Assembly (NCBI GenBank): GCA_043808365.1
Contig: JAZDEZ010000008.1
Coordinates: forward strand, 919 to 64,918
Length of the DNA: 64,000 nucleotides
From: Patescibacteria group bacterium
GTDB taxonomy: Bacteria > Patescibacteriota > Patescibacteriia > UBA10025 > JAHIVO01
Direction of reading: 5' to 3'
Part shown: piece after piece, positions 21,306 to 62,245 of the stretch
How positions within the stretch are numbered: the stretch's first letter is position 1
Layout of the letters: each line of letters starts with the position of its first letter
The notes under the pieces: model-generated
Databases searched by the model: none
Told to the model about the DNA's origin: nothing
Seen by the model: only the letters and a program-made list of their open reading frames with translations
Program-made: the position numbers and the translations under genes

Positions 21306-21320
21306 TTGGCCACCTCATCG

Positions 21321-21457: not shown

Positions 21458-21460
21458 ATT

Positions 21461-22081: not shown

Positions 22082-22096
22082 AATCTTAAATACCCC

Positions 22097-23071
22097 CTAT
22101 CTAATCACAAACTTCTCCATCCACCCCTTTATCTCCTTATTGCCAACTTTTCTCTTCCGCCGAATCTGCCTCCTCTGCCTCAATAACCTCGGCCACGAAA
22201 CCACCAGCGAACCGATAATCTTTGTATAGATCAATATATTTTCCCCAATGGTCATGCGATAATCCGCATCAACCGACTCCCGGCCTTTCATTGATTTCAG
22301 CCATAAACTGGCCGGATAATCCTTAATTGCCGTAAAGAGCCTGTTCCGGCCAGAATGGTATCGGCGGAAAATATACGAGAGTTTCTTGGTAGTGGAGGCG
22401 ACTTTATGGTAAACCACGGCCTGTGGTGCGTACATGATTTTCCAGCCTCGCAGTCGGGCCCGAATTGATAAATCAGAATCCTCAATATAAGCAAAAAAAT
22501 GGCTGTCAAAATAATCCCCACTCAGTTCACAATCCTCCAGCATCTCCCGCCGGTACAAAGCTGCACCAGCCCGTGCTGAAAAACATTCTTCAATTCGATC
22601 ATATTGTCCTTTGTCAATATCTCCATATCCTCGAGTTATCACTTTCAAAGTGCCAGGCAGTAAATAATCGCCGGTGGAATCCAATTTGTCCCTCTCAAAA
22701 AAAAATTTTATTTTACTGGCTACGGCGCCAGTCCGATCATCCTGCTGAGCAACTCTAATTAATTGTTCCAGCCAGTCAGCCTGAACTTCTGTGTCATTAT
22801 TCAATGTGACAATATATTTTATTGAAGAATTTTTCAGCGCCTCTCGTATCCCGACATTATTCCCCTCAGCAAAGCCTGTATTTCTTTTCAAGGGAATAAT
22901 CTGAACATCAGGAAAATTTTTCTCGACAAAACTAACGGAATCGTCAACTGAACCGTTATCAACCATAATGACTTCAAAATCCTTATACGTCTGCGCGAAA
23001 ACAGAACGGAGGCACGCATCCAGATGCTCACGACCGTTCCAGTTGACGATGATGATGGAAATAGTTGGCAT
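22097..23071 (-). CDS. Family 2 glycosyltransferase
   Basis: 324 aa. SIIIVNWNG ... VDNGSVDDS ... typical GT2 (rhamnosyltransferase-like) N-terminal Rossmann region with DxD. Confidence 0.85.
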   Translation of the reverse strand: MPTISIIIVNWNGREHLDACLRSVFAQTYKDFEVIMVDNGSVDDSVSFVEKNFPDVQIIPLKRNTGFAEGNNVGIREALKNSSIKYIVTLNNDTEVQADWLEQLIRVAQQDDRTGAVASKIKFFFERDKLDSTGDYLLPGTLKVITRGYGDIDKGQYDRIEECFSARAGAALYRREMLEDCELSGDYFDSHFFAYIEDSDLSIRARLRGWKIMYAPQAVVYHKVASTTKKLSYIFRRYHSGRNRLFTAIKDYPASLWLKSMKGRESVDADYRMTIGENILIYTKIIGSLVVSWPRLLRQRRQIRRKRKVGNKEIKGWMEKFVIR

Positions 23072-23079: not shown

Positions 23080-23173
23080 GTAATTAGTAATCTGTAACTT
23101 GTAATAATTGTTACTGATTACAGGTTACCTGCTTAAATCACTAATTACTATTTACGAATTACTAATTACTTAC
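23080..23173. repeat. Heptamer array: 4 GTAANNN units followed by inverted TTAC units (hairpin-forming)
   Basis: GTAA starts at 23080, 23087, 23094 and 23101. TTAC ends at 23114, 23121 and 23128, then at 23148, 23155, 23162 and 23169. Confidence 0.75.
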
Positions 23174-32698: not shown

Positions 32699-32785
32699 CC
32701 TTGTTCAATGTATAATTGATAATTTCTAATGCATAATTTGTTACTTTGATTATACATTTTGCCTTATAAATTCCCTCCTAATATC

Positions 32786-32835
32786 TAACAACTAATTACT
32801 AATTACCAACTACTAATTACTGATTACTAACTTAC
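32786..32835. repeat. Heptamer array (NNNTTAC), spacer between the giant gene and pilM
   Basis: TAATTAC TAATTAC CAACTAC TAATTAC TGATTAC, with (T/C)TAC ends at 32799, 32806, 32813, 32820 and 32827. It overlaps the stop codon of the giant gene. Confidence 0.7.
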
Positions 32836-44291: not shown

Positions 44292-44369
44292 AGGAAATTT
44301 AAAGGGAGGACAAGGGTAACATGGGATGCAAGGGGGAGCAGGGGACTTCAAGGGTAGATACTGGTGCTA
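44292..44369. repeat. Array of about 9-nt NNNCAAGGG units (left arm of four-helix-bundle cassette 1)
   Basis: TTTAAAGGG AGGACAAGGG TAACATGGG ATGCAAGGG GGAGCAGGG GACTTCAAGGG. It contains the IR half GGGGAGCAGGGGACTTCAAGGG (44333-44354). Confidence 0.75.
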
Positions 44370-44789
44370 TTAAGGCTTTTTAATTTTGCTGGCTCCGCTA
44401 TTAAAATTATTCATACGTTTTTTAGTTTCTAATGATTTTACTAACTTTGAGAATAAATAATCAGTTTTACCGCATAGGGCGTCTAATTTTCTAAATTCCA
44501 CCTCGGTAATCAATTGGTCTTCGAAGCAATCTTCTATATCACCCTGCAATTCGGAAAGTGACGGCTGGCAAATATTTTTCAGGGCGTTGATGTACTGGCC
44601 AAGGGTCTGGCGGTACCCTTCCTGAATATTCTGCTTTACCGAGCGGGCGGCGCTGTTCATCTGGCTGACACGCCTGATTTCAGATTTTGGAAAACGCCTC
44701 GACATTTCATAGACCGCGCTTCTTAACTGGCTGGCGTTCCGCCAAACAATTAGATCTTTATACCCCTGCTTGTATTTTTTATCCAACAT
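44370..44789 (-). CDS. Four-helix-bundle protein (23S rRNA intervening-sequence protein / Avd family)
   Basis: 139 aa. YKDLIVWRNASQLRSAVYEMSRRFPKSEIRRVSQMNSAARSVKQNIQEGY matches the F.DL.VWQ.A..L...IY.....FPK.E.. L..Q..RAA.S...NIAEG pattern of TIGR02436/PF05635. Confidence 0.8.
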   Translation of the reverse strand: MLDKKYKQGYKDLIVWRNASQLRSAVYEMSRRFPKSEIRRVSQMNSAARSVKQNIQEGYRQTLGQYINALKNICQPSLSELQGDIEDCFEDQLITEVEFRKLDALCGKTDYLFSKLVKSLETKKRMNNFNSGASKIKKP

Positions 44790-44805
44790 ATTTCAATCGT
44801 GTAAT

Positions 44806-44925
44806 TATCCCCCTTGAAACCCCTGATTTCCCTTGGACCCCCCTAATCTCCCTTGAAATTACCCTGAATCTCCCCTTGCCTTCCCTTGAAACCCCCTGCT
44901 CCCCTGTGGAACCCCTGAATCTTTA
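44806..44925. repeat. Array of about 10-nt CCCTTGA/CCCCTGA units (right arm of cassette 1, inverted relative to the left arm)
   Basis: AACCCCTGA TTTCCCTTGG ACCCCCCTAA TCTCCCTTGA AATTACCCTGA ATCTCCCCTTG CCTTCCCTTGA AACCCCCTGC... IR half CCCTTGAAACCCCCTGCTCCCC (44883-44904) matches 20/22 with the reverse complement of 44333-44354. Confidence 0.75.
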
Positions 44926-44930
44926 CGTGC

Positions 44931-47162
44931 TTACAACTCATTGCAAATTATTTCGGTAATCTGGGAATTGGCGTCGAGGGTAAGGCCCGTCATAAATTTG
45001 CCGCCGATGGTGGCGCAGTTGGCCACGCCGCTGGAAACCGGAACCACCTCGTCACTGCCGCCCCACTGGTTATTTTCCGCCTGAACGTCACTGCCAACGG
45101 TAAGATTATTTCCCACCATGCCCGCGCCTGACACGTTGACATGGCCGGGCTGGGGGGTAATGTTGCACGACCCATATATTTCACAATCACTGTTATTCTT
45201 ACAGACGCGGGTTGGCCGTCCGGAACAGAATCCCAGCCGGTCAAGATTCACAACCGTATTTAGATCCGTATGCCCCTGGCCCGAACCGGAATAAAATTTC
45301 TGCAGATTAAGTGGCCTGGTTTCGTCGCATCCAGTACTGTTGCAAGTGTTTAACGTCCATAAATATGTCCCGTCAAAAAGCAGTCTAGCGCCAGACCAGT
45401 CTGACCATAAACGAGTAGGATACCCCTTAATTTCACCATTAGCGGCAGTGATCCGATATACCGAATTACCGATACCAGGTTCTCCCAGCCCAGCCAGCCA
45501 GACATAAGTGCCATCAAAGGCCAGGTCTGACGCCTCAAGCTTTGAACTAAGCGCTAATGGCATAAATTGGCTGTCAGACACGCGGAATTTGGCCACTTTC
45601 CCTTCTGTCCCTATATAGCTGGAAATAACCCAGATATGGGCGCCGTCAAAGATCAGCCGCCCGGGCGCGGATAGTCCAGTCGCGTAGCGCCCTACAACGG
45701 CGCCGGTATCCGGATCGATTTTTATTAAATTTTCCGGATTTTGCTGGCAACCTGGGCCACTGACGCAAATTTGGATAGTCGCGGGTCGTGTCGCGCCCTG
45801 CGTGACATTGGGCAATAAAGTCCAGATATAGCCATCGGCAAAAATAATTCCCTCCGGCCTGACGCGCCAGCCGGCGCTGTTCAAACGGTTCAGGTCAACG
45901 CCAGCGCCGTTTGTTCCCACGGGATAAATGCCGACCCGATTGCAGTCAGAATCGATTTTTGTTATGTCGCCGCCATCAGGACTGACCGTCCAAATAAACA
46001 CCTTGCCATCATCATCCACGCTGGTGGCAATTTCACGGGGAATAACCCCAAAATTGACCGTACCGCAGTGCTCCGTCACTGATCCATCTTGGGGATCAAA
46101 CTTTGTCAATGTAGCGTCATAATTCGACAGCCACAAATACCGGCCGTCAAACGTGATATTAGTACCTTCTGTGTTGGGCAAATTATACGTACCTATTACC
46201 TCGCCGTCAGACGCCCGAATTTTCCACAACTCATTGCCATCGTCATCGCTAAATTTATTCATAACCCAAATATTTGAACCGTCGAATGCCATATCTGGAA
46301 ACAAAAAACTATTTGATCCGGCTGCCGCTGACGCCGGATATTCCCCTATTTTCTGCCCGGCCGCAAACGGCACTAATGATCTTTGCAATTGCGTCGGCAG
46401 AAATATGCCGGCCGCCACGTCCGCCCCGGCGCCGAAAAACCCTTTGAAATACCCGGCCAGGCCGCTGCCCGTATTCTGACCATAGACGGCCGCGTCGGTA
46501 AGCGCTCCTGTTTCGACATAGATGCCTTTACCGCCCGTGCTGACTCCCTTTAGGCCGTTCCCGTTTACACTCTGGCCGCTGACCGCCTGACTGCTGTTGC
46601 CGGTATAGAGGCCATAGACACCCGTTCCGCCCATTGAAGCCGCGGTCAGGCCGGCGCCTTTTGAGCTGTATCCGCTGACCGCCCGGCCATTGATCGGGGC
46701 CGCGCCACTGCCGATCCGCGCCATTCCACCCTCTACTATCAGCGCCGTGTCCGGCGTCTGGAATTTCGTACCGATGCCCACCCAGCCTTCGGTGGAATTC
46801 GCGTAGAGGACGTCGTCATCGACGGCCAGCACGTCGTTATAAACATATGGCGTGGAAAAAATGGCGCCATCACCTCGGACATCCAATGGCTTCAGGGGAG
46901 GATCCGCGGAGAACGAACTGGACTGCGTCAGGTCATACGTCGGTAAAATTTCAAGCGACCCGGCCTTAGCCTGGTTCTCGGGACCCGTCGTCAGCGGAGC
47001 GTCAAAAGTCTCCGTCGGCGGCGCTGATGACGGCTCCAACCACTCGGCTTGGGCCACGCGCGCCCCGCCCTGGGCAATTCCAACACACGCCAGAATCCCC
47101 AGGATGAAAAATGTCCCGAGGTTTTTCCTGAATATATTTTTTTTGATATTTAATCTCTTCAT
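44931..47162 (-). CDS. Secreted beta-propeller repeat protein, paralog 1 (743 aa)
   Basis: Signal peptide MKRLNIKKNIFRKNLGTFFILGILACVGIAQG, then AEWLEPSSAPP... The body carries FDG(T/S/R/A)(Y/N/H)(L/I/V)W blades. The C-terminus is C..G.F..G...(n)..ITEIICNEL. Confidence 0.85.
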   Translation of the reverse strand: MKRLNIKKNIFRKNLGTFFILGILACVGIAQGGARVAQAEWLEPSSAPPTETFDAPLTTGPENQAKAGSLEILPTYDLTQSSSFSADPPLKPLDVRGDGAIFSTPYVYNDVLAVDDDVLYANSTEGWVGIGTKFQTPDTALIVEGGMARIGSGAAPINGRAVSGYSSKGAGLTAASMGGTGVYGLYTGNSSQAVSGQSVNGNGLKGVSTGGKGIYVETGALTDAAVYGQNTGSGLAGYFKGFFGAGADVAAGIFLPTQLQRSLVPFAAGQKIGEYPASAAAGSNSFLFPDMAFDGSNIWVMNKFSDDDGNELWKIRASDGEVIGTYNLPNTEGTNITFDGRYLWLSNYDATLTKFDPQDGSVTEHCGTVNFGVIPREIATSVDDDGKVFIWTVSPDGGDITKIDSDCNRVGIYPVGTNGAGVDLNRLNSAGWRVRPEGIIFADGYIWTLLPNVTQGATRPATIQICVSGPGCQQNPENLIKIDPDTGAVVGRYATGLSAPGRLIFDGAHIWVISSYIGTEGKVAKFRVSDSQFMPLALSSKLEASDLAFDGTYVWLAGLGEPGIGNSVYRITAANGEIKGYPTRLWSDWSGARLLFDGTYLWTLNTCNSTGCDETRPLNLQKFYSGSGQGHTDLNTVVNLDRLGFCSGRPTRVCKNNSDCEIYGSCNITPQPGHVNVSGAGMVGNNLTVGSDVQAENNQWGGSDEVVPVSSGVANCATIGGKFMTGLTLDANSQITEIICNEL

Positions 47163-47173
47163 TTACTTTCCGC

Positions 47174-47271
47174 GGATTACTTGTTACCCGTTACTAATTA
47201 CGAATTACTATTTACTAATTACTTATTACCTTTTATCTATTATTTATTATCTATTACTTATTACCTTCTAC
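47174..47271. repeat. Heptamer array, 14 NNNTTAC units in unbroken register
   Basis: TTAC/TTAT/CTAC ends at 47180, 47187 ... 47271 (every 7 nt). It fills the spacer between the stop of the 1677-aa gene and the start of the 743-aa gene. Confidence 0.85.
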
Positions 47272-47275
47272 ATGC

Positions 47276-50200
47276 TTACAGCCCCCGGCATTTCAGAGTG
47301 GCGGGTACATTGTCTAGCGCCCCATTTGCCAGGTTGCGCTTCTCAATGCGCCAGCCGGCAAACCCGTCCAAATTGCCGAAGGTATATATGTAGGTATCGT
47401 CAATCGCGATATCGCGGCCGTACTGGACGTCATTTGGGTTGGCATTACTGTAAATCGCGATGGAACCGGAACCGCTATCGCCGAACCCGATTCCACAATT
47501 TCCTGCTGTGCACAGCGCACCCGTATCCAAGCGGCGTTTCTCCATGTACCAACCGTCGTCATTCATGGACCGGTAGCCGATCAGATACATGTAATCATCG
47601 TCAATGGCGATTGAATTCACCCCATCAGCAATATTCGTCACAACCGTGATTGCTCCGCTGCCTGAATCGCCGAAGTTACCGGCCGAGCAAGCACCGCCGG
47701 TGCAGAGCGAGCCATTGTCCTTGTCATATTTCCTGATATGCCAATTGGCATTGTCCATGCCGGCTACGTAAAGATAATCAGAGTCAACGGAAATACCGCC
47801 GACATAGGTCGTGTTATCATCCACGGTAGCGGTGGTCTCTGTAATAACCCCGCTGCTGCCAAAACCGCTGTCTAAGCTGCCATCCGTGAGCAAGCGCTTT
47901 TCAATGCGCCATTGGAGATTTTCATCAAACCCAAACACGTACATGGAGGCATCGTCAATATCAATATCGTGCGCTGAACTTGTCAGGGCGCTGCTTTCGA
48001 CATACCCATCACCGTCAAAAGCAGTGCCGCAAACAGCTGCCGTGCACAAATCTCCCGTGCCCAGCAACCGTTTTTCCGTCCGCCAAGTATTTGAACTGCT
48101 CTGGCCGGTTACGTACATATATTGGCTGTCGATGGCAATTGCTCTGGCCGCTTTGCCGCCCGCCGCGTTTAATGCCCATGCCTGACTGCCGTTTGTTTTA
48201 GCACGTTTCTCGATATGCCATACATCAAGCGGTGTCTGGCCGACTGTATAAAGATAAGTATCATCAATTGCCACATCCCAGCCGGCATTGCTGCCGCCAT
48301 TAGCCGCCGCTCCGGTAATGATGCCATCGCCGTCAAAACCCGTATCGAGAGTCCCGCTCCAAATATCGCGCTTCTCGGCGCGCCAGCGAGTATTTATATC
48401 CGTATCTGAATTTCCAGCCAGATACACACTGCTTTCATCAACCGCGATGCCCCAGCCAAGCGTGCTCCCGTTCATGCCGTCCTCCCGGATATACCCGCTC
48501 GTCCCAAAAGAAACAGCGCGGCTGGTGAGATCAATGCCCTTCACATACTGGCCGTCTTGGCAGCTCTGTCCGGTATTCCTGTCATCGTCCGCCGCGCCTG
48601 CCCAGGCGTTATTAGCGACGACTAAATCACCAACCACTGTCAACTTCGCGCCAAAAGCCGCCGAGCCATCAGCGGAAAAACTGCCCGGCTGGGAATCGAC
48701 GCTCCACTGGCTAGCGTCGCGGAGCTGGACAGAACCGGCAAGATCAGCGGCGCCGCGCCCACTGCCGACATAGTACTGTTTCAAGGAGTACCCCTCGTAC
48801 CAGGCCAACCCGTAGGATGTGATCCACAAACTATTGCCGTCAAAAATTGCCGCCCGCGTATCGTACTTAGTGCCGAGCGTGACGCTCTCGACAATCTGGT
48901 CAGTGGCCGCCGCGATTCTGGTCAAGTAGCGGTTATTTTCCGAACTGGTTTCTTCCGACGTGTCGAGCGCGCTGCTGCAGCCGGGATCCGGCTTGCCGCT
49001 GCACCCGGGATTGCCGATGCCTCCGTCAAAGTCGCACAAGCTGTTGCCGTCGTTATCCAGGTGATCGGAGCATTGCCCCACAGCCGGTGAAATGTCATGG
49101 TACCCGACATGAGTGGCCCAGACGTAGGTGCCGTCAAAAGTCAGCGTGGTAACGTTGGCGGTGTCCCCGTCCTTAAAAATCGAGTACTTGGCCGCAACCA
49201 CGGCATTGCAGTCATTGCCGCCGCAATCGGCAGGAGTGTTGCAAACCAAGGTGGTATTATTGCTGCAAACCCCGGCATGGGTGCTGTCCCCGCCGTAGGG
49301 GTCTATCTTATAAATGCTGTTTCCGTCCGCGTCCGCGAAGTACGAACCGACCCAGAGGTAGGTGCCGTCGTACATGATAGACCTGATCGGCCGCGCACCG
49401 CCGCCAGGCGACTGGGTCGACATCTCTGCAATGCTCAGCCTGGATAAGAACGCGCCATCCTGCCTGACGTTTACCACCTTCCTGCTATTGTTGAGCGAAG
49501 CCCAGATACTGCCGCTCGCCTGCGCCAGCAGATGCGGCCGCTCGTTTACTCCGATGTACCCACCGAGCGTATACCGCGTGTAGCTGGTACAGACATGCGA
49601 TCCGGGACTACAGCTCGATAAATCGATCCGCAAGAGATAATTACTATCTTGTTCTAAGGATGCCCAGAGGTACGCGCCGTCGTAAGAAAGGTCGTAGACA
49701 TACTTTTCTCCAAGGCCAGCCAACTCGTACTCATCTACCGTTAAGCCGGTTTTTGGATCGACCTGTCGAAACCACATTTTAAAATCGTGCGCGTGGGGCA
49801 GCCACAAGCTCGCCCCGTCAAAAGTGATGTACCCGACATCGAAGCCCATGTCATAGTCGCTGATTTTTTTACCGTCGGAGGCGCGGTACTTACTGAGGTA
49901 AGTCGAAGCTGAAGCGGTTCCCCAGAGGTACGTGCCGTCAAATATGAAATCATCATAACCCGCGCCGAGAATTGGAACAGTAGTGTCGACGTACGGCGCC
50001 TCCATGGTTCGCTTCCCCACGCTGCCGATCCGTCCGAAACCCTGCCAGATGATGGGATTGCTGGGATCGCGCGGGTCATAGGTGAAATCATACAGGGTGC
50101 GGTCCCAGGGACCCTCCCCGTAGTGGTTTTGCTCCACGCCGTCAGTGTCAAACTTCTCCAGAAAACCTTTGCTGCCGACCCAGACCGATGGCCCGCCCGG

Positions 50201-52309
50201 TGTTTCTCGGTAGAATGAAATAGTATCTTCACGGTCATATATGCCTCCCCAGCCGCCGTCGTAGAGTCCTTCGACAGTTTCGCTCGCTGGATTGAACTTG
50301 ACCAGCCGTCTATTGCCCTGAGGGAATTCACGGAAAGCGCTGTAGGCGAGCCAAATTTTATTATTGACATCATCAAACGTCGCATCGCTCGGGCCGGTCG
50401 CCGGGCCGCTGCAAAATACCTTCTGGCTTGCCGGCTGGCTCGGATCGCTTGCCAGCACTCTGGTGAACCCTTCTCCGACATTGGAATTGCCGCCGCCGTA
50501 ATAGCTCGTCCAGACGTAGGTGCCGTCAAAGGTTATACCAGTCGCATCACCGACCACGCCGCTGGATACGCGCTCATCGTTATCCGGAGTACCGGCGGGC
50601 GATGTCAAAATATTGGCGCATTGGGTGTCGGGTCCGCGCCATGTGCCGGCAGAACAGCTTACCGCCGGAGTGCAGGTGGCTGAAGTAGCGCAACGGGCGT
50701 CGCTGCACGCCGTACCGTTCCAGGTGCCGCCGCAGGTAGCGGGATTGGCAGTACAACTGCCCGCCACCCAGCGGGAATCGCACTGACCAGCTCCTGTTCC
50801 GGTGCACGATGCCTGATCACCGCAGGATCGGTCAACGCAAACTCCAGGAGTCCAGGTGCCGCCAACGCCCGCGCAGGTTGCTTCTGATTCGGCAAGGACA
50901 CACCAGCCGATGGTATCAATAGAATTGTCAGTATCGGTGTCAAGACGGTCGGTGCAGGAGCCGAGGTTCATCGTCCAGCAGGAGTTGCCGGTGCCGTTCA
51001 CTCCGGTTACCAAGTTTTTAATCGATGCTTGGCTGCTGATCTGATAGGCCAGCAATCCGGTGCCATCCGTTTTTATCCGCGACTGAACATCGTTTCCGTT
51101 ATTTCGCTTACTGATTGTCCAGAAATACGGGCCGCCGGGTGTCACGTTATCGTAGGTCATGTCAATCGGCCCACCGACAGCGGTAGCATCGGTATCAACG
51201 GAGTAGTACGCTACCGCCTGGTACGTCGCCGGGTCAAACTTTACCAGGCTTGGGTCGCCATCGTGATCGGTCAGCGCCCAAACAAAGCCTTCATGAAAAA
51301 ATAGTTTATTGATTCCGTGATCAACGGGGAGCAACACTGGCCTCGCCACCACCGCCATGGTATCGGGATCCACTACGTACATTCTCGGCTCCCAATCGTA
51401 AGTGCCGAACCAGAGGTTAACACCGTCAAACGTGATGGCAGAGCCCCCGATCAGCTCGCTGTCTTCGGCAGTCCCCATGGGCCACCCGGCAGTGTACGGT
51501 ACCCGGGATTGCTGTAATCGGTTGGGAATAAATTTTCCAGCTGCCAGCGCCCCGCTGCCGTACAGCCGCTGCTGGAAATAGCCGGCCCACGCGCCCATGC
51601 CGTTCGCCTCGCCATAGACGGCGGCAATGACATTTGACGGGTTATACGGGGAATTGATAATGCCAACCACGGCGGATGCCTGATTACTGTATGCGTAGAT
51701 GCCGGAACCATTCACTGAGTTCAATCCATACACACCCGGGCCAGTCACGGAAGCGCCGCTGACAGCGGGCTGGTTGCCGGTTGAGTTGCCCGTAGCCGCT
51801 GTATTAGCATCAGCTGTATTCACTGAAATTGCTGATCCTGTCGTGATCGGCGTCGTTGCTGATCCGGCATTGGCACTGCCACTTACCACGTCCAAAATCA
51901 CCGCGGCGCTTGGCGATGCCGTGCCGATCCCGACATTATCATTTGCGCCGCTGACATTGAGCGTATCCGTATCGACAGCCAGATTTCCCGGGTCAACCAG
52001 ATTGAACGTATTGATGTACACGTCTTTCGTCCCGCGCACGTCAAGCGGATAATTCGTCGTCGGCGTATCGCCAAACGGGTTATAAAGCGGGTCGAGGATC
52101 AGGTGGCCTTTCTTGGCCTGGTCTCCCGGGCCGGCGGTCAATGGCGCGTAGATATTTCCGGCCGGCGCCTGGGCTGACGGCTCTTCCCAAGCCGCCTGGA
52201 CAAACTTCGCGGTGCCAACCAGAACCCCCAAGCACACAAAAAATCCCAGGACAAAAAACATTGCCCGGTTTTTCCTGAATATATTTTTTTTGATATTTAA
52301 TCTCTTCAT
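47276..52309 (-). CDS. Secreted beta-propeller / Cys-rich surface protein, paralog 2 (1677 aa)
   Basis: Its first 15 codons and 5' leader are nearly identical to paralog 1. It has FDG.Y.W blades, a Cys-rich region, and a C-terminal W(R/H)(I/T/A)EKR propeller of the same type as in the giant protein. It ends ...LKCRGL like paralog 3. Confidence 0.9.
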   Translation of the reverse strand: MKRLNIKKNIFRKNRAMFFVLGFFVCLGVLVGTAKFVQAAWEEPSAQAPAGNIYAPLTAGPGDQAKKGHLILDPLYNPFGDTPTTNYPLDVRGTKDVYINTFNLVDPGNLAVDTDTLNVSGANDNVGIGTASPSAAVILDVVSGSANAGSATTPITTGSAISVNTADANTAATGNSTGNQPAVSGASVTGPGVYGLNSVNGSGIYAYSNQASAVVGIINSPYNPSNVIAAVYGEANGMGAWAGYFQQRLYGSGALAAGKFIPNRLQQSRVPYTAGWPMGTAEDSELIGGSAITFDGVNLWFGTYDWEPRMYVVDPDTMAVVARPVLLPVDHGINKLFFHEGFVWALTDHDGDPSLVKFDPATYQAVAYYSVDTDATAVGGPIDMTYDNVTPGGPYFWTISKRNNGNDVQSRIKTDGTGLLAYQISSQASIKNLVTGVNGTGNSCWTMNLGSCTDRLDTDTDNSIDTIGWCVLAESEATCAGVGGTWTPGVCVDRSCGDQASCTGTGAGQCDSRWVAGSCTANPATCGGTWNGTACSDARCATSATCTPAVSCSAGTWRGPDTQCANILTSPAGTPDNDERVSSGVVGDATGITFDGTYVWTSYYGGGNSNVGEGFTRVLASDPSQPASQKVFCSGPATGPSDATFDDVNNKIWLAYSAFREFPQGNRRLVKFNPASETVEGLYDGGWGGIYDREDTISFYRETPGGPSVWVGSKGFLEKFDTDGVEQNHYGEGPWDRTLYDFTYDPRDPSNPIIWQGFGRIGSVGKRTMEAPYVDTTVPILGAGYDDFIFDGTYLWGTASASTYLSKYRASDGKKISDYDMGFDVGYITFDGASLWLPHAHDFKMWFRQVDPKTGLTVDEYELAGLGEKYVYDLSYDGAYLWASLEQDSNYLLRIDLSSCSPGSHVCTSYTRYTLGGYIGVNERPHLLAQASGSIWASLNNSRKVVNVRQDGAFLSRLSIAEMSTQSPGGGARPIRSIMYDGTYLWVGSYFADADGNSIYKIDPYGGDSTHAGVCSNNTTLVCNTPADCGGNDCNAVVAAKYSIFKDGDTANVTTLTFDGTYVWATHVGYHDISPAVGQCSDHLDNDGNSLCDFDGGIGNPGCSGKPDPGCSSALDTSEETSSENNRYLTRIAAATDQIVESVTLGTKYDTRAAIFDGNSLWITSYGLAWYEGYSLKQYYVGSGRGAADLAGSVQLRDASQWSVDSQPGSFSADGSAAFGAKLTVVGDLVVANNAWAGAADDDRNTGQSCQDGQYVKGIDLTSRAVSFGTSGYIREDGMNGSTLGWGIAVDESSVYLAGNSDTDINTRWRAEKRDIWSGTLDTGFDGDGIITGAAANGGSNAGWDVAIDDTYLYTVGQTPLDVWHIEKRAKTNGSQAWALNAAGGKAARAIAIDSQYMYVTGQSSSNTWRTEKRLLGTGDLCTAAVCGTAFDGDGYVESSALTSSAHDIDIDDASMYVFGFDENLQWRIEKRLLTDGSLDSGFGSSGVITETTATVDDNTTYVGGISVDSDYLYVAGMDNANWHIRKYDKDNGSLCTGGACSAGNFGDSGSGAITVVTNIADGVNSIAIDDDYMYLIGYRSMNDDGWYMEKRRLDTGALCTAGNCGIGFGDSGSGSIAIYSNANPNDVQYGRDIAIDDTYIYTFGNLDGFAGWRIEKRNLANGALDNVPATLKCRGL

Positions 52310-52320
52310 CTACTTTCCGC

Positions 52321-52453
52321 GGATTACTTATTACCCGTTACTGATTACTAATTACGAATTACTTATTATTTATTATTTATTACTTATTACCTATTATTTA
52401 TTACTTATTACATTGTTCATGGTTCTAAGTTCAAAGTTCATGGTTCATAGTTC
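52321..52453. repeat. Heptamer array, 19 units: 13 NNNTTA(C/T) then 6 NNNGTTC in the same register
   Basis: Units end at 52327, 52334 ... 52411 (TTAC/TTAT) and at 52418, 52425 ... 52453 (GTTC) with no phase break. Confidence 0.85.
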
Positions 52454-52464
52454 TAACCTGCCCC

Positions 52465-55008
52465 TTACAGCCCCCGGCATTCTATCTTGGTAACGCGGCC
52501 GCTTCCATCCATAACGACATTCTTTATATAATGCCCGGCCGGGCACCTTTTCGTTCCGGCCCCGAGACCCGCTGGATTGACGATGACATCGCCCGATCCC
52601 GCGGTCGGCCAGGCATTGCTGGCCGCGATCAAATCACTGCCCGCGGTCATGGCACTGCCGATCCGTCCGGATCCTGCTATGTTAAAGCTCCCTGACTGCG
52701 CGGTGAGCGGAGTGTTGTTCTGGAGCGTCAGCGTCCGGCTCATGTCGGTATGGCCATAGCCCGTGCCGGAAAAAATCTTGGTAATGCCGGTCGGCCCGAA
52801 AACGTACAAGTACGTGCCGTCAAAAGCGATACCGGTCGGCTCGAAACCAAGGGCAAAATCCGACCGGTCAGCAGGCAGGGCGGCATTAAGACGGGTAATG
52901 TTCGAGTCACCAGCATTTACGATCCATAAATAAGTTCCGTCAAAAGCCATATCCGTCGGAGTGCCTCCAGTGCCAAAACCCGCGTAGCCATTATCAGACA
53001 TTGGCACGGGCGGCGCGAAACACCCGCCCAGCCCCAGGCTCGAACAAGAGGCGTCATCTGTACAGGGTGCGTTGTTTCCCTCGGAATCTTTTATCGAACA
53101 GACGCGGTTCTGGCTCAAATAAAACCGCTTGGCCGTATTGCTGGACGCATCCAATATCCAATAATAGTAATTATCATAAAAAATGTCAGTGGAATCGCCC
53201 GTCACTAGGCCGGTAAAAAACATCGCCTTACCAGAAGACGGATTAATGTTGTACAGATTGCTTTCATCCGGCGCCAGCACCCACAGGTAGCTGCCGTTAT
53301 AAATTATTTTCGTAAAAGTTCCCTCCGCGTCAGTGAGATGGACCGCGGATCCGACTATCCCGCAGGCACTGTTCAGTTTGACCACTTCCCCTCCGGCACT
53401 GCCGCTGGTCGCCACCCAGTAGTACGTGCCGTCAAAGGCGATACTGACTGGGTCTGTGATGTCCAGCGAACACTCGCCCGGTCCGGTTCCCTGCCCCGGA
53501 TCGTATGGATTCATTTTTTTCACCCGATCCCCGCTAGACAGGACCATCCAGATATACTGCCCATCGTATAACATATCAGACACGTCACTGCTGACATCCA
53601 GCTCAAAAATTTTAAAGCCGTCCGCCGCCCTGATCTTGAAAATTTTCGACTCGTACGCGGCCCACAGGTACGTCCCGTCAAAAAAACGGAAATACATCTT
53701 CCCCACATTGTACGTATCCACGGCCTGGCCAGCGGTAAACGGCACCAATGAAGCCTGCGGCGCCGTCCGGACTAATTTTGCGCCGGACACGTCGCCGCTC
53801 CCCTCCACCTGGCCGTCAAAATACCCCGCCCACAGCCCGTAGGGATTGGCATTAATCGCGTAGATGCCGTATCCGGTCTGGCTGTAGCCGTAGACTGAAC
53901 TCAAATAACCCGGGATCATTTGCGATCCAATTGATCGCGGAGTACCGCCCATACTGACAGTCACCCACGCCCTGACATAATACATATTTGACGAGCCATT
54001 GACTGAATTTTGCACCCAGTCCGTCGGCAGTGACGTCCAGATGGTAACCTTTGTGACTATTGGATCCGTGTTCTTGAAACTGTATGGCCCGGACACCGGA
54101 TCGACTTTAAGCCACGCCGTGCAATTGCCGGCGTTTACCGCCGTACAGTACTCCCACCAGACCTCCCCAACGGAATTATAATTCGTCACGTCCAGCGCAA
54201 TACTGTTAAATGGATTCGTTCTCCCGAAATACATCGCGTCACCTACTGCGCTGAGAAACCCGTTACTTTGGTCAGCGCCATAATAAATATCATTCCTGGC
54301 ACTGTTGGCCGCGGCGGCTGTCACGTTCGTATATGTCGTGGTATTGTCATTGTACAGGAGCACTTTATCAAAAACATCCTGGCCTGACTGCCCCTGTGCC
54401 GCGATTCCGGATTGGTTTTCTGCCCGCACGCCATAGCCATCATCACTCGCGGAAGTCCCCTGGACACCCGGGTCGGTGCTGGGATATACCGATGAGCCGT
54501 ACAAGGCCTCCGCGCTGCTGCTGGTCGCTGACAGCGCGTCAGCGTTTGGCGCATTGATGCTCCAGGTGCCTCCGCTAACTTCAAGCTTGCTGCCCGAAAT
54601 GCCGAGACAAGGTCCGACACAGACCTTGTTGTTGGCGGCATCGACAAATAGTGTTCCCGGGTATGCGCTTGATGCCGTACCGACTTTCAGGTTTTGCTCC
54701 AGTACAGCCTCAGTTGATTGCGCGCCTTCACCCAGAACTTCCAGCTGGTAATTGAACGGGTTGGCCACGTTACCAGACCCAAGCCGCAAACTCCCGGATT
54801 TCGCCTGCGTTGACCCGTCAATCAGCAAATATCCGCTGGCATTCTGGTCAGGCGGCGCGGCGATCGGGCCGCTCGGCGCCGCTTTCACTTGAGCATGCCA
54901 AACTAAGGAGGCAAGGATTATGCAAGAACAAAAAAATAGGCCAAAAAAAGCCCATTTTGCCCGGAAATTATTATTTTTCGTGATGTATTTCACGCCCCTC
55001 GACATCAC
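52465..55008 (-). CDS. Secreted beta-propeller repeat protein, paralog 3 (847 aa)
   Basis: Signal anchor ...WAFFGLFFCSCIILASLVWHAQVKA, then APSGPIAAPPDQNASG.. The body carries FDGTY(L/Y)W blades. The C-terminus is CPAGHYIKNVVMDGSGRVTKIECRGL. Confidence 0.85.
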   Translation of the reverse strand: MMSRGVKYITKNNNFRAKWAFFGLFFCSCIILASLVWHAQVKAAPSGPIAAPPDQNASGYLLIDGSTQAKSGSLRLGSGNVANPFNYQLEVLGEGAQSTEAVLEQNLKVGTASSAYPGTLFVDAANNKVCVGPCLGISGSKLEVSGGTWSINAPNADALSATSSSAEALYGSSVYPSTDPGVQGTSASDDGYGVRAENQSGIAAQGQSGQDVFDKVLLYNDNTTTYTNVTAAAANSARNDIYYGADQSNGFLSAVGDAMYFGRTNPFNSIALDVTNYNSVGEVWWEYCTAVNAGNCTAWLKVDPVSGPYSFKNTDPIVTKVTIWTSLPTDWVQNSVNGSSNMYYVRAWVTVSMGGTPRSIGSQMIPGYLSSVYGYSQTGYGIYAINANPYGLWAGYFDGQVEGSGDVSGAKLVRTAPQASLVPFTAGQAVDTYNVGKMYFRFFDGTYLWAAYESKIFKIRAADGFKIFELDVSSDVSDMLYDGQYIWMVLSSGDRVKKMNPYDPGQGTGPGECSLDITDPVSIAFDGTYYWVATSGSAGGEVVKLNSACGIVGSAVHLTDAEGTFTKIIYNGSYLWVLAPDESNLYNINPSSGKAMFFTGLVTGDSTDIFYDNYYYWILDASSNTAKRFYLSQNRVCSIKDSEGNNAPCTDDASCSSLGLGGCFAPPVPMSDNGYAGFGTGGTPTDMAFDGTYLWIVNAGDSNITRLNAALPADRSDFALGFEPTGIAFDGTYLYVFGPTGITKIFSGTGYGHTDMSRTLTLQNNTPLTAQSGSFNIAGSGRIGSAMTAGSDLIAASNAWPTAGSGDVIVNPAGLGAGTKRCPAGHYIKNVVMDGSGRVTKIECRGL

Positions 55009-55058
55009 TGGTTAAGTTAATTTTTATTTTCGCAGAAAAAACATTTTTCTTCAGTCCG

Positions 55059-55087
55059 TTGACAAATACTGGGAATACTGCGATACT
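55059..55087 (+). promoter_or_regulatory. Sigma70-like promoter candidate (divergent region)
   Basis: TTGACA (55059-55064), 17-nt spacer, GATACT (55082-55087). Confidence 0.35.
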
Positions 55088-55141
55088 CACATTGAGAAAA
55101 ATATTTTTTATTAGCCCAATTGTAACACATTTTTACCCGAA

Positions 55142-55633
55142 ATGTCAAGTGAAATTAAAATGAAATATTTACCCTTCAATAAGAGCCAAAAGACCGTCCT
55201 GCTTGGCGCGGGAATAATCTTTGTCGTGGTAATCGGCATCGCTTTAGTGAGCTTCTACTATGGGAAGCATCAGGGCACCAAAAGCCTGGCGGCCGTACCC
55301 GGCATCAATGTCGCTCCGGCCGGATATCAAAAAGTCCTGGGAGTCCAAACCGCCAGCTGGCAGGGAAAAATTACCAAGGCGTCAGGAAATGTTATTACCT
55401 TCACTATTACTGACCAGGACAACAAATCAAGAAGACTATCCGCGCGCGTGACGGATGGCACCCAATTACTCCGCGCTGATTTGACAAAAGCTCCATCCGC
55501 TAGCCGGTCTCCGGCCGCGCTCTCGGACTTCACGATCGGCTCGACAATCTACGTTCAGGGCCCGGCTGCTGACGCCAGCCAGTCCGAATTCGACGCCATC
55601 GCGATAACCCTGCTGATCATCCCAAAAACATAA
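55142..55633 (+). CDS. Membrane-anchored hypothetical protein
   Basis: 163 aa. N-terminal TM VLLGAGIIFVVVIGIALVSFYY followed by a small beta-rich ectodomain. Confidence 0.6.
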   Translation: MSSEIKMKYLPFNKSQKTVLLGAGIIFVVVIGIALVSFYYGKHQGTKSLAAVPGINVAPAGYQKVLGVQTASWQGKITKASGNVITFTITDQDNKSRRLSARVTDGTQLLRADLTKAPSASRSPAALSDFTIGSTIYVQGPAADASQSEFDAIAITLLIIPKT

Positions 55634-55667
55634 TCATTTTATTACATAACCATTAACTAACATTCCT

Positions 55668-56231
55668 ATGTCACCAATTGTCTGGATCATCATCATCGCC
55701 ATCGGCGCCATCGTCCTATGGTTCATTGCGGTCTACAACGGCCTGATCCGCCTGCGCAACCAAACTAAGGAAGCCTGGGCTGACATCGACGTCCAGCTCA
55801 AGCGCCGCTACGACCTGATCCCGAACCTGGTCGAAACGGTCAAGGGCTATGCCAAGCACGAACGCGAACTTTTTGAAAAAGTAACCCTAGCCAGGACAGC
55901 GGCCATGGGCGCCACGGGCGTGGCTGCCAAGGGCCAGGCGGAAAATATGCTGGCCGGCACGCTGAAAAGCTTGTTTGCCGTGGCCGAAGCCTATCCTGAC
56001 CTGAAAGCCAACCAGAACTTCTTGAAGCTCCAGGACGAGCTGTCTGACACGGAAAACAAGATCCAGGCCGCCCGCCGGTTTTATAACGGCAACGTGCGCG
56101 ACTTCAACACGAAGATTCAGGTGTTCCCGAACAACATGATTGCCGGCACCCTCGGTTTCAAGGCCTTTGAATTCTTCGAGCTCGGCGCCGGTGAAGCGGC
56201 GGCTAAAGAGCCGGTGAAGGTGAGCTTCTAG
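55668..56231 (+). CDS. lemA: LemA family protein
   Basis: 187 aa. N-terminal TM, then YNGLIRLRNQTKEAWADIDVQLKRRYDLIPNLVETVKGYAKHE ... ARRFYN, the LemA signature. Confidence 0.9.
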   Translation: MSPIVWIIIIAIGAIVLWFIAVYNGLIRLRNQTKEAWADIDVQLKRRYDLIPNLVETVKGYAKHERELFEKVTLARTAAMGATGVAAKGQAENMLAGTLKSLFAVAEAYPDLKANQNFLKLQDELSDTENKIQAARRFYNGNVRDFNTKIQVFPNNMIAGTLGFKAFEFFELGAGEAAAKEPVKVSF

Positions 56232-56237
56232 TTAGAC

Positions 56238-56265
56238 TAAGAACTTTGAACCGAAAACACTGAAC
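56238..56265. repeat. NNNGAAC heptamers (left arm of four-helix-bundle cassette 2)
   Basis: TAAGAAC TTTGAAC CGAAAAC ACTGAAC (ends at 56244, 56251, 56258 and 56265), followed by the hairpin CTGAAC-tggaatatc-GTTCAG. Confidence 0.7.
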
Positions 56266-56296
56266 TGGAATATCGTTCAGATTATATTTGATACTT

Positions 56297-56653
56297 ATGT
56301 TATTCAGATTCAGACAATTTCCTGTTTACAAGGATTCCAGAAAATTCCGAAATGACATATACGCTTTAACGAAAAAATTTCCTAAAGAAGAGCTATTCAG
56401 TTTAACTTCGCAAATCAGACGCGCGACAAACTCCATCTTATTGAACATTGCTGAAGGATCAAACCGACTGTCCGATAATGACTTTGGACGCTTTTTAAAT
56501 ACAGCATTGACTTCACTTGAAGAAGCAGTCGCCTGTATGGATATTGCGCTCGATGAAAAATATATTAGCCTACAAGATCACGAAAAACACCTTGCATTAG
56601 CAGAAAACCTTGGCAAGCAATTACTCGGTTTCAGCAAAAAACTTCGAAAGTAA
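56297..56653 (+). CDS. Four-helix-bundle protein (23S rRNA intervening-sequence protein / Avd family)
   Basis: FPVYKDSRKFRNDIYALTKKFPKEELFSLTSQIRRATNSILLNIAEGSNR is a close match to the TIGR02436 pattern. The ATG at 56297 is preferred over the TTG at 56288. Confidence 0.85.
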   Translation: MLFRFRQFPVYKDSRKFRNDIYALTKKFPKEELFSLTSQIRRATNSILLNIAEGSNRLSDNDFGRFLNTALTSLEEAVACMDIALDEKYISLQDHEKHLALAENLGKQLLGFSKKLRK

Positions 56654-56663
56654 GCTAAATTTA

Positions 56664-56753
56664 TAGGTTCCAAGTTCCTAGACAAAGTTGATTGTTCAAG
56701 GTTCTAAGTTCCTAGTCCCAAGTTCATTGTTCCCAGTTCATAGTCCTGAGTTC
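56664..56753. repeat. 13 NNNGTTC heptamers (right arm of cassette 2, inverted relative to the left arm)
   Basis: TAGGTTC CAAGTTC CTAGAC AAAGTTG ATTGTTC AAGGTTC TAAGTTC CTAGTCC CAAGTTC ATTGTTC CCAGTTC ATAGTCC TGAGTTC. The track ORF 56688-57668 wrongly translates this array as an HtpX N-terminal extension. Confidence 0.8.
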
Positions 56754-56765
56754 AACGTAAATCCC

Positions 56766-57668
56766 ATGCCCACCATCTACACGCATATCAATGCCAACAA
56801 ACGCCGGCCATGGATCCTGATGGGAATATGCGCAATATTCCTATTTGGCATCGGATTTTTTCTCGATCAGGCGTACGGCCATGGATCCTGGGGCTGGACC
56901 ATAGTCGCCCTGATATACGCTGTAATCAGCGCTTTAATCGGCTATTTCAAGGGTGATAAGATTGCCCTGTGGACATCCGGGGCCGTCCCAGTGACCAAGG
57001 AACAAAACGCCTATGTCGTCCGCATGGCCGAGAATCTGGCCATCACCACCGGCTTGCCGGCGCCGAAAGTCTACATCATCCCTGATGAGGACATTAACGC
57101 GTTTGCGACCGGACGCGACCCGCAACACGCCTCCATCGCCGTCACCCAGGGGGCGATTGACAAGCTGGCCAACGAGGAGCTGGAAGGCGTCATGGCGCAT
57201 GAAATTTCGCATATCGGAAATTATGATATCCGCTACATGACTCTGGTGATAGTTTTGGTTGGGACGATTATCGTTTTATCTGACATGTTCTGGCGGGTTC
57301 GCTTCGGACGTTCATTTGGCCGAAGCAGTGGCCGGAGCGGCGGCGGCGCCGCCATCATGGTGCTTGGACTCGTTCTCCTGATACTCGCTCCGTTGTTCGC
57401 TGAATTGATAAAACTGGCCGTCTCCCGCAAACGCGAATACCTGGCGGACGCTTCCGGCGCATTACTCACGCGGTACCCGGAAGGGCTGGCCCGCGCTCTG
57501 GAAAAAATACGCGACCAGGGAGCGCGGATTGAGCGGGCGACGAAATCTACGGCGCACCTGTACATCGCCAACCCAATGGGCTCGGGATTCTCAAAATTTT
57601 TTTCCACCCATCCGCCGATTGACGACCGGATCAGCCGACTGCGCCAGATGGGAAATATAACGCAATAA
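56766..57668 (+). CDS. htpX: Membrane zinc metalloprotease HtpX (M48 family)
   Basis: HEISHIGNYD (HExxH), 4 TM segments, and C-terminal STHPPIDDRI. The start is reset to ATG 56766 (MPTIYTHINANKRR). Confidence 0.9.
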   Translation: MPTIYTHINANKRRPWILMGICAIFLFGIGFFLDQAYGHGSWGWTIVALIYAVISALIGYFKGDKIALWTSGAVPVTKEQNAYVVRMAENLAITTGLPAPKVYIIPDEDINAFATGRDPQHASIAVTQGAIDKLANEELEGVMAHEISHIGNYDIRYMTLVIVLVGTIIVLSDMFWRVRFGRSFGRSSGRSGGGAAIMVLGLVLLILAPLFAELIKLAVSRKREYLADASGALLTRYPEGLARALEKIRDQGARIERATKSTAHLYIANPMGSGFSKFFSTHPPIDDRISRLRQMGNITQ

Positions 57669-57672: not shown

Positions 57673-57810
57673 ATGGATAATAAAAAAGACATCATTACCG
57701 AGGTACAGACTGGCACCGCCACTTCGACAAAAATTACTCTCGGGATTTCTATTGCCGCGGGAATTATTACCGCCGCCGCCATCATCTTGGCGCTGACGAA
57801 CATCAAATGA
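57673..57810 (+). CDS. Possible 45-aa tail-anchored membrane peptide (below the track cutoff)
   Basis: MDNKKDIITEVQTGTATSTKITLGISIAAGIITAAAIILALTNIK. It starts 5 nt after the htpX stop. No clear SD. Confidence 0.3.
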   Translation: MDNKKDIITEVQTGTATSTKITLGISIAAGIITAAAIILALTNIK

Positions 57811-57997
57811 ACTACCTCGCAGCAAGCTGACGAGGTATCGTCAGCCAAGAGATATGTTCATTCTCCGTAGCTAGCTATCCTCCTTCGCTTGCGCTTCGGA
57901 GGATTCTCCTCATTTGTTTCCCCGCAGTCCAGCCTTCGTAGCCGAAGCTACTTCGGCGGAGCAGGCCAAGCTGCGGAGTATTAATGCGGAGGAGAAT
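57807..57997 (+). repeat. Dispersed GC-rich hairpin repeat, long copy
   Basis: ATGAACTACCTCGCAGCAAGCTGACGAGGTATCGTCAGC...GTTCATTCTCCGTAGCT ... CAGTCCAGCCTTCGTAGC ... GCGGAGGAGAAT. It matches 62132-62245 but carries two extra internal hairpins. Confidence 0.75.
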
Positions 57998-62119: not shown

Positions 62120-62131
62120 CAAACTGCTACA

Positions 62132-62245
62132 ATGAACTACCTCGCAGTAAGCTGACGAGGTATCGTCAGCAAAGAAATGCGTTCATTCTCCGTAGCTTCT
62201 CTTTAATTCATTTCTCTCAGTCCAGACTTCGTAGCGGAGGAGAAT
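62132..62245 (+). repeat. Dispersed GC-rich hairpin repeat, short copy
   Basis: ATGAACTACCTCGCAGTAAGCTGACGAGGTATCGTCAGCAAAGAAATGCGTTCATTCTCCGTAGCT...CAGTCCAGACTTCGTAGCGGAGGAGAAT, starting 13 nt after the clpC stop. Confidence 0.75.

Follow-up and report, generated by a model that had tools for sequence, protein, structure and literature searches.

Three kinds of bacterial heptamer repeat bear on the sequences described here. Direct repeats of TAACTGA are known from Beggiatoaceae, Cyanobacteria and Bacteroidetes (MacGregor 2015, PMC4679880), and translational roles involving S1, Csp and CsrA have been proposed for them (PMC4679880). Cyanobacteria carry contiguous heptamers, the short tandemly repeated repetitive (STRR) sequences and the heptamers of Nostoc, located near start codons or promoters, and deletion constructs suggest that the Nostoc heptamers affect transcription or translation (bioRxiv 10.1101/2022.06.06.494920). 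The third is the (ATCTTTC)n repeat in the 5′ untranslated region (UTR) of the hmw1A and hmw2A genes of Haemophilus influenzae, which is perfect and hypervariable, forms a long hairpin with a G-rich arm and is cleaved by RNase III (PMC12721329). Here we describe degenerate heptamer arrays in a 64,000-nucleotide stretch of DNA, referred to below as the window, from a Patescibacteria group bacterium (NCBI GenBank assembly GCA_043808365.1, contig JAZDEZ010000008.1, positions 919 to 64,918 of the forward strand). Two of these arrays, A and B, occupy the spacers between three consecutive paralogous genes, C, B and A; all genes and arrays of this region are read on the minus strand, and their sequences are given as they appear on that coding strand.

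We class the element as an intergenic heptamer repeat of the TAACTGA, STRR or long simple-sequence repeat (LSSR) kind, outside the named sequence families. The explanation that we favor for the locus as a whole combines a repeat array anchored at stop codons, a gene-conversion tract that joins the starts of genes A and B, and a passive role for the arrays as insulator and leader, and we put its probability at about one half.

Array A (47174..47271, minus strand) lies in the 113-nt spacer that separates the stop codon of gene B (TAA, 47278-47276) from the ATG of gene A (47162). The entire spacer can be parsed as GCAT, 14 heptamers (47271-47174), GCGGAAA and GTAA, followed directly by the ATG, so that the array begins 4 nt past the stop codon and ends 11 nt before the start codon. 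Tandem Repeats Finder (TRF) reports a period of 7 and 12.7 copies. The array consists of GTAGAAG and 13 [G/A]TAA[T/A/C]NN units; units 1 to 7 are GTAGAAG, GTAATAA, GTAATAG, ATAATAA, ATAATAG, ATAAAAG and GTAATAA, and units 8 to 14 are GTAATTA, GTAAATA, GTAATTC, GTAATTA, GTAACGG, GTAACAA and GTAATCC. The sequence-only reading of this stretch had counted 14 NNNTTAC heptamers here; the 14 units in unbroken register are present, but the strict motif is found in only ten of them, as ten units start with GTAA, three with ATAA and one with GTAG (TTAC, TTAT and CTAC, respectively, on the plus strand). TAA occupies positions 2–4 of 13 consecutive units, that is all but the first, and a run of 13 TAA at period 7 was reached in none of 20,000 mononucleotide shuffles of the spacer. 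The 7-nt register is kept in the leader between the array and the ATG (GCGGAAAGTAA, 47163..47173), in which the only Shine-Dalgarno (SD)-like feature is a weak GGA/AAG. Since the register runs on through GCGGAAA and GTAA-ATG, the start codon of gene A takes up positions 5–7 of a last unit, GTAAATG.

The 155-nt spacer between genes C and B (52464-52310) likewise holds a single 7-nt register throughout, with up to 19 heptamers in total. It reads GGGG, CAGGTTA, six GAACNNN (TGAAC-type) heptamers (52412..52453, starting 11 nt past the stop codon of gene C), the thirteen [G/A]TAATNN heptamers of array B (52321..52411, TRF score 101), GCGGAAA, GTAG and then ATG. Its leader, GCGGAAAGTAG (52310..52320), has one base different from that of gene A. 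Arrays A and B are about 80% identical with a single unit-sized indel between them, and a 20-nt perfect repeat is present inside array B.

Arrays A and B are rich in A (45–48%) and poor in C (6–10%), and contain 7–12 stop codons in each of the three sense frames and 0–3 in each antisense frame. Among their 27 units the mismatches to GTAATAA number 6, 0, 0, 1, 6, 11 and 11 at unit positions 1 to 7 (chi-square p = 9e-5, a value inflated by the fact that the two arrays are partly copies of one another and their units not fully independent). TAA is kept in 26 of the 27 units, the remaining one having TAG, and positions 6 and 7 vary freely. RNA folding of the arrays and of the module described below is no better than that of shuffled sequences (z = +0.35 and +0.28), no pairing partner for the arrays beyond chance extremes was found in the operon RNA, and the Rfam covariance models give no match at E ≤ 1 in positions 44000-57000. 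A 265-aa open reading frame (ORF) on the plus strand (46852-47649) crosses array A and overlaps genes A and B; it owes its passage through the array to the near absence of stop codons on the antisense strand and is almost certainly spurious, and ORFs of this sort could be mis-annotated by gene callers.

In several respects these arrays resemble the TAACTGA repeats (PMC4679880). Both are tandem intergenic heptamers that point to a start codon and lie a few bases from it, both offer stop codons in three frames in the forward orientation (some TAACTGA repeats overlap the upstream stop), and both combine a lack of predicted RNA structure with a scarcity of ribosome-binding sites. The window arrays differ in having a GTAATNN unit that leaves two positions free and in containing no exact TAACTGA, in their length (13–14 units, as against mostly 2–6) and in filling the spacer completely; they belong to a Patescibacteria metagenome-assembled genome (MAG), and the array and gene start are duplicated between paralogs. 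With the STRR and Nostoc heptamers (bioRxiv 10.1101/2022.06.06.494920) they share contiguous units near start codons, and, among the loci listed in the public scan described below, cyanobacterial genomes very commonly carry heptamer arrays that contain GTAAT; those arrays, however, are mostly near-perfect repeats of a single heptamer, and the units in the window are not exact or near-exact copies of a named heptamer such as STRR1-3. The layout is also that of hmw1A and hmw2A (PMC12721329), where a heptamer array transcribed within the mRNA lies upstream of two paralogous surface-protein genes that have a common upstream region, but the window arrays are degenerate and unstructured, and those of relatives are invariant in two pairs of strains.

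The leaders and starts of genes A and B form part of a module that is present at both junctions. The sequence-only reading had pointed to near-identical 5′ segments containing a 43-nt perfect block, and we confirm this block, which occupies 47120-47162 at one junction and 52267-52309 at the other. The window contains exactly two copies of a 36-nt pattern that runs across the leader and the start, where chance would give 0; a repeat search aligns 47086-47277 with 52233-52424 at 83% identity and without gaps, and the alignment has 2 mismatches in the stretch of about 85 nt that reaches from GTAACGG through codon 14. The shared sequence covers the leader, the adjoining heptamers and the first 14 codons (MKRLNIKKNIFRKN; 47121..47162 in gene A, which we read as the recipient of a conversion, and 52268..52309 in gene B), as had been proposed, whereas the SD region attributed to it is at best weak (GGAAAG, i.e. 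GGA/AAG). MKRLNIKKNIFRKN corresponds exactly to the basic n-region of a predicted Sec-type signal peptide, and past the module the hydrophobic core and the AxA-like site have diverged between A and B (VAQA/EW, VQAA/WE).

An alignment by codons, covering the homologous N-terminal ~360 residues of the two proteins, shows how sharply this identity ends. Codons 1–14 are identical at 42 of 42 bases, every third position included, whereas identity over the next 322 aligned codons is 40% for amino acids, 50% for bases and 35% for third positions; the proposed elevation of the 5′ module over the gene bodies thus withstands proper alignment. Identical residues of A and B share their codon in 45% of cases, and 14 identical codons out of 14 would arise by chance with a probability of ~1.5e-5. 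Orthologs do not have the shared block, as the N-termini of A and B differ in all eight relative loci with a readable B-A junction (L001, L002, L203, L204, L206, L208, L209 and L210). Because the identity spans synonymous sites and then stops abruptly, it points to a copied tract and not to selection at the level of individual bases, and because the A and B N-termini of relatives differ and four of the relatives lack arrays, the module is derived in the window lineage.

We conclude with high confidence that the shared module is a recent ectopic gene-conversion tract between adjacent junctions and not a separately selected control element. Gene conversion was one of two options offered by the sequence-only reading, and the sharp boundary, the inclusion of synonymous sites and the differing N-termini in relatives all speak for it. 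The other option, selection for a common control module on different cargo genes, fares poorly: A and B are adjacent tandem paralogs of one conserved operon, and the putative module lies in an intercistronic spacer with no promoter-like or terminator-like site, no more structure than shuffled sequences (z = +0.3) and a weak SD. As in other cases of conversion between paralogs, the tract is short and close to 100% identical, includes synonymous sites, has sharp borders and is missing from orthologs; it departs from the usual pattern in spanning an intergenic array and, of the coding sequence, only the signal-peptide n-region, and its donor and recipient are putative. A 23-nt module pattern gave 0 matches in public genome and metagenome contig collections, among which the source genome is not included; GTAATCCGCGGAAAGTARATGAAGAG can serve as the query for finding further copies of the module.

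The conversion tract would contain the last array units, the leader and the first 14 codons, and possibly the entire junction of ~190 nt. The last 5 codons and the stop codon are base-identical in genes B and C, and the sequence AATGCCGGGGGCTGTAAG, comprising the last codons of gene B (CRGL), the stop and one further base (47275..47292), recurs base for base at the end of gene C (52464-52481), while the paralogs of relatives code the same motif with different codons. For this reason the copied unit may be the whole junction, with the AATGCCGGGGGCTGTAAG region as its 5′ edge and with an array portion that may be diverging faster than the rest. As to direction, B was probably the donor and A the recipient, a tentative assignment based on the N-terminus of the window B protein, where MKRLNIKKNIFRKN followed by RAMFFV stays collinear across the module boundary with MKRLKEQKNRIGKI followed by RTLFFV in the B protein of L204. 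The residues of the module are also most like those of B orthologs, but N-terminal identities by themselves leave the direction unsettled, as the A ortholog of L203 also begins MKRI. The likeness between the arrays probably aided the exchange. Codons 6–9 of both genes (ATC AAA AAA AAT) include a run of eight A residues (47135-47142 and 52282-52289, minus strand), at the place of which the B ortholog of L001 has seven; this homopolymer in the signal-peptide n-region may be a potential site of slippage or frameshifting, or may simply represent lysine codons.

Genes C (52465..55008), B (47276..52309, 1677 aa) and A (44931..47162, 743 aa) are tandem paralogs that encode proteins with FDGTYLW-type repeats; gene C is the first paralog of the operon and its 5′ end is without the module. 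Protein A, a predicted secreted repeat protein, is 100% identical to hypothetical protein V1668_01710 of an NCBI MAG named 'Patescibacteria group bacterium', and B shares 37% identity with it over the first ~360 aa. B and C end in C-R-G-L and A in C-N-E-L (ICNEL). A Pfam search of the three proteins returned no family, and distant homologs bear NHL or YncE-like beta-propeller domains.

The genes belong to an operon that is conserved in Patescibacteria and that encodes three paralogous predicted secreted repeat proteins together with a protein of 3,800–4,900 aa. It is found at the relative loci L001, L002 and L203-L210, and in its paralogs A(E/A)WxEP comes after the signal peptide and the last residues are C-x-x-L (mostly CRGL, CNGL or CQGL). 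Five loci (L001, L002, L206, L208 and L210) show the same synteny, in which peptidase M48, LemA and a small gene are divergent from the C-like, B-like and A-like genes, and these are followed by the giant gene. The spacers vary widely. In L001, L002, L208 and L210 the spacers measure 1–21 nt, and those at C-B and B-A are 4–21 nt long and repeat-free. L204 and L205 have five GTAATNN units between C and B and seven between B and A, the last again being GTAAATG; L209 has four to five GTAATNN units between B and A; and L206 has five TAATNNN units between C and B and a minimal GTAATAA-GTTATG between B and A. L203, the source of the closest A homolog (48%), has CGTTGNN heptamers after each stop codon and a different, 141-nt repeat at two junctions, 2965-3146 (C-B) and 9111-9300 (after A), which is GC-rich, has internal palindromes and is 87% identical between its copies.

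The junction spacers of this operon therefore seem to attract repeats in several lineages, and to judge from the loci compared, arrays of this kind are gained, lost and resized at these same junctions. At every junction the conserved C-terminal Leu codon followed by TAA or TAG provides a (T)TGTAA/G seed. No polymorphism of array length was seen in the two pairs of near-identical contigs that were checked, the members of each pair coming from different samples. L204 and L205, with 8 single-nucleotide polymorphisms (SNPs) between them in 14,192 nt, have identical arrays, and so do L206 and L207, with 30 SNPs in 11,183 nt and no indels.

Several observations bear on how the arrays would be expressed. 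A TTGACA-18-TACAAT promoter-like site (55119..55148, minus strand; 11 of 12 matches, TG-extended) lies upstream of gene C; it is the best such site in 13 kb and the sole strong one upstream of C-B-A, and the motif is at the same place in L001. Neither array spacer (47163-47275, 52310-52464) contains a sigma-70-like site, none reaching at least 9 of 12 matches, or a site resembling an intrinsic terminator, with the proviso that promoter rules for this phylum are not established, and neither has a TTGACA-like -35 element. With the sole strong promoter upstream of C and none in the spacers, we infer that one mRNA carries C, B and A, with the arrays as RNA between the cistrons; in position they are intercistronic spacers and not promoter-proximal leaders. 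An SD core of at least 4 nt within 20 nt of the start is present in only 6 of the 26 ATG-start genes of the window, and the regions upstream of gene starts are A+T-rich, which suggests that initiation in this genome is mostly SD-independent.

The favored reading can be set out as follows. Its evolutionary part is well supported: a slippage-prone, stop-anchored heptamer array has expanded in the normally tiny intercistronic spacers of C-B-A in the window lineage, and ectopic conversion between the two similar junctions then most likely overwrote the start of A with that of B. What the arrays do we propose with moderate to low confidence. Transcribed within a polycistronic mRNA, the array would act passively, as an A-rich, C-poor, unstructured sequence with a stop codon in every unit: it would end stray translation in all three frames, the 113–155-nt spacer would break termination-reinitiation coupling with the upstream cistron, and the array would be an open standby platform for SD-independent (S1-type) initiation by the 30S subunit at a start with a weak SD. 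These three effects would follow from its being stop-rich and unstructured, and an open landing site would matter because this genome rarely uses SD pairing. The 4–21-nt spacers of relatives fit coupling by termination and reinitiation (see PMC10666635). The effect of the array on expression is probably modest, and its length would drift through gain and loss of units.

Placement at stop codons is not restricted to this operon. Within the window, a GTAATNN array at 32785..32835 (minus strand) begins at the stop codon of a 3839-aa gene with the TAA of the stop in register, and a looser array lies past the stop codon at 25326-25274. At 23080..23172 (minus strand) an inverted ATTAC array comes directly after a GTAATNN one, and the two form a predicted hairpin (-34.7 kcal/mol, z -3.5); it ends 8 nt before the ATG (23071) of gene 22097-23071, has a terminator-like hairpin and a TACAAT box upstream of it, and looks like an ORF-less cassette of the type described in the next paragraph. 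We also scanned public genomes, one per species, for at least 5 consecutive GTAATNN units, and obtained at least 120 loci (L003-L122); the counts that follow refer to the loci listed, and those on placement rest on crude ORF calls. Cyanobacteria and Bacteroidota make up most of the hosts, and Planctomycetota, Verrucomicrobiota and Chloroflexota some of the rest. Another two hosts belong to candidate phyla (Kuenenbacteria L034 and Peregrinibacteria L056) and have arrays that are degenerate like those of the window, whereas the other arrays are mostly near-perfect repeats of a single heptamer. Sense arrays begin within 15 nt of the stop codon of a same-strand upstream ORF in 45 of 70 cases (median 7 nt, with 14 overlapping it), as against 10 of 87 antisense arrays (median 97 nt), and arrays are present in 6 divergent and 29 convergent spacers. 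Since a sense array cannot artificially lengthen the upstream ORF, such arrays seem to be anchored at stop codons quite generally when in the sense orientation.

Arrays of short units, often heptamers and differing in sequence between loci, also accompany genes for 23S_rRNA_IVP proteins (PF05635, Avd-like four-helix bundles). In ribosomal RNA, intervening sequences (IVSs) are established elements in which an IVP ORF lies within inverted repeats that form a long stem and are excised by RNase III (PMC11270868). Both 23S_rRNA_IVP genes of the window are likewise bracketed by inverted arrays able to form a long stem, and these pair in the minimum free energy (MFE) fold. One cassette, at 44295-44925 (minus strand), has CAAGGGG-type and CCCCTTG-type arrays around an ORF at 44370-44789, and the other, at 56230-56755 (plus strand), has GAAC-type and GTTC-type arrays around an ORF at 56288-56653. 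Unlike the 23S rRNA elements they lie in mRNA spacers and not in rRNA, and arrays A and B have no inverted partner or IVP ORF. The same bracketed layout is seen at L109:4039-4585 ([GTAATGG]x9, IVP, [CCATTAC]x16). Of 62 IVP loci from metagenomes, 25 have flanks that pair with z < -3 and 10 have flanks that pair with z < -5, the best-pairing loci having inverted heptamer arrays with locus-specific units. Strong periodicity is seen in 16 of 144 IVP flanks, with a period of 7 in 14 of them, compared with 0 of 109 controls. No description of IVP genes with heptamer arms was found in the searchable literature, which does not prove novelty. The idea that GTAAT arrays generally lie beside IVP genes was rejected, since phmmer, Pfam searches of 76 adjacent small ORFs and a custom hidden Markov model found an adjacent IVP gene at 1 of 120 loci among those listed. 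The GAACNNN units of the C-B spacer (52412-52453, minus strand) are complementary to the GTTC-type array at 56651-56755 (plus strand) in the RNA of the divergently transcribed IVP/M48 spacer; the duplex is predicted at -44 kcal/mol (window mean -11.8, standard deviation 4.5), and pairing in trans between the mRNAs of the two operons is possible.

Several points weigh against the favored reading. Transcription through the array and any translational effect are deduced from sequence, and the arrays are dispensable and could be neutral, since four relatives with the same operon have none. A purely passive spacer would need no sequence-specific constraint, yet the invariant TAA and the GTAAT core hint at one, for example a binding factor; the position-specific statistics behind them are, as noted, inflated by partial copying. 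Between the junctions, identity is 98% over the proximal 85 nt but only ~80% in the distal array units, and the tract may therefore stop short of the full junction, or the arrays may predate the conversion. The B-to-A direction rests on short N-terminal similarities of low complexity (basic residues). The arrays could be neutral products of slippage or unequal recombination, seeded at the GTAA context of stop codons (TTG-TAA/TAG), with a conversion tract beside them and nothing functional in either, a reading that we think rather unlikely but take seriously. It agrees with the provision of a GTAA seed at every junction by the C-terminal Leu codon and TAA, with the range from 0 to 13 array units among relatives with the same operon, with the unit-sized indel that separates arrays A and B, and with the harmlessness of an unstructured stop-rich spacer, which would be tolerated; moreover, among the long simple-sequence repeats of bacteria heptamers are the most frequent, a pattern ascribed to polymerase slippage (Mrazek 2007, as cited in PMC4679880). 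Neutral decay, however, would strike all positions equally, whereas the decay seen here is position-specific (TAA in 26 of 27 units, positions 6 and 7 free), the degenerate GTAATNN type recurs in several Patescibacteria lineages, and placement depends on orientation, since it is the sense arrays and not the antisense ones that lie next to stop codons. The constraint on the core could also be taken further, with multivalent GUAAU (GTAAT) sites bound by a protein that recognises RNA or DNA and regulates A and B together, and with base-level selection keeping the two copies identical. The conserved GTAAT core with two free positions per unit, the start codon in register both in the window and in L204, and the kindred proposals for TAACTGA repeats (S1, Csp and CsrA; PMC4679880) and Nostoc heptamers (bioRxiv 10.1101/2022.06.06.494920) would suit such a module, but the identity includes all 14 third-codon positions and then ends abruptly, the signature of a copied tract, relatives have no shared module and four of them no arrays at all, and no candidate binding protein was identified; we regard it as quite improbable.

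The IVP cassettes lead to two further proposals, both of which we consider poor prospects. One is that stop-anchored GTAATNN arrays are selected RNA elements tied to Avd-like 23S_rRNA_IVP proteins, the inverted arrays being IVS-like mRNA cassettes processed by RNase III and the solo arrays (A and B) being targets in cis or trans, through IVP binding or array pairing, that set the translation of individual cistrons, in this case those for surface proteins of a Patescibacteria symbiont. The other is that the solo arrays are relics, arms left over from elements in which inverted heptamer arrays bracket a 23S_rRNA_IVP gene and which populate the spacers of this genome. The bracketing of both window IVP genes by pairing arrays, the L109 layout, the pairing of flanks with z < -3 in 25 of 62 metagenome loci and the periodicity of 16 of 144 flanks against 0 of 109 controls are what a relic would lead one to expect, as is the match of the GAACNNN units upstream of B to the arm type of the cassette at 56230-56755, with its predicted pairing of -44 kcal/mol. 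Against this, neither an inverted partner nor an IVP remnant accompanies arrays A or B, an adjacent IVP gene was found at 1 of 120 GTAAT-array loci among those listed, and L204 and L209 have arrays at their junctions and no IVP gene in the DNA fetched. We judge it very improbable that the locus is a phase-variable contingency locus of the hmw1A/hmw2A type, in which heptamer copy number tunes two paralogous surface proteins: although the layout is similar, with a heptamer array upstream of two paralogous predicted secreted proteins that have an identical 5′ region (PMC12721329), and although array length varies among lineages and array B has a 20-nt perfect internal repeat, the degenerate units imply a low potential for slippage, there is no hairpin partner like that of the hmw 5′ UTR (z = +0.3), the arrays are identical in L204/L205 and L206/L207, and the DNA from the upstream gene to the array has no recognisable promoter-like site. 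We give least credence of all to internal promoters within the arrays that would transcribe A and B independently. The arrays are 70–75% A+T in a genome of ~50% G+C, and strings such as TAATAA and TAGATAAT resemble -10 elements; nonetheless no site in the spacers reaches 9 of 12 sigma-70 consensus matches while the operon promoter has 11 of 12, a TTGACA-like -35 is lacking, and the same genes in relatives sit behind spacers of 4–21 nt, too short for a promoter.

Two further intergenic repeats are present elsewhere in the window. A 67-nt repeat is found at 57806-57872 and 62131-62197 (plus strand), 93% identical between the copies, with the palindrome CCTCGCAGCAAGCTGACGAGG and no Rfam match at the gathering threshold. 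An element of ~49 nt with the palindrome GCCTCAACTTGTTGAGG occurs at 21302-21350, 21415-21463 and 22042-22090, each time at a gene boundary.

For decades, heptamer arrays have been known from intergenic DNA (STRR, TAACTGA, LSSR), and the window adds to them a degenerate GTAATNN type in Patescibacteria. The inverted heptamer arrays around IVP genes may link two unexplained features of bacterial genomes. The same operon, present with spacers of 4–21 nt in some genomes and with spacers of 37–155 nt bearing 5 to 13 TAAT-core units in others, provides a natural comparison, and the invariant TAA together with the strict anchoring at stop codons makes an effect of the array on translational coupling directly testable. 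Read as we propose, the locus shows how arrays can promote ectopic conversion and so homogenise the starts of neighboring surface-protein genes.

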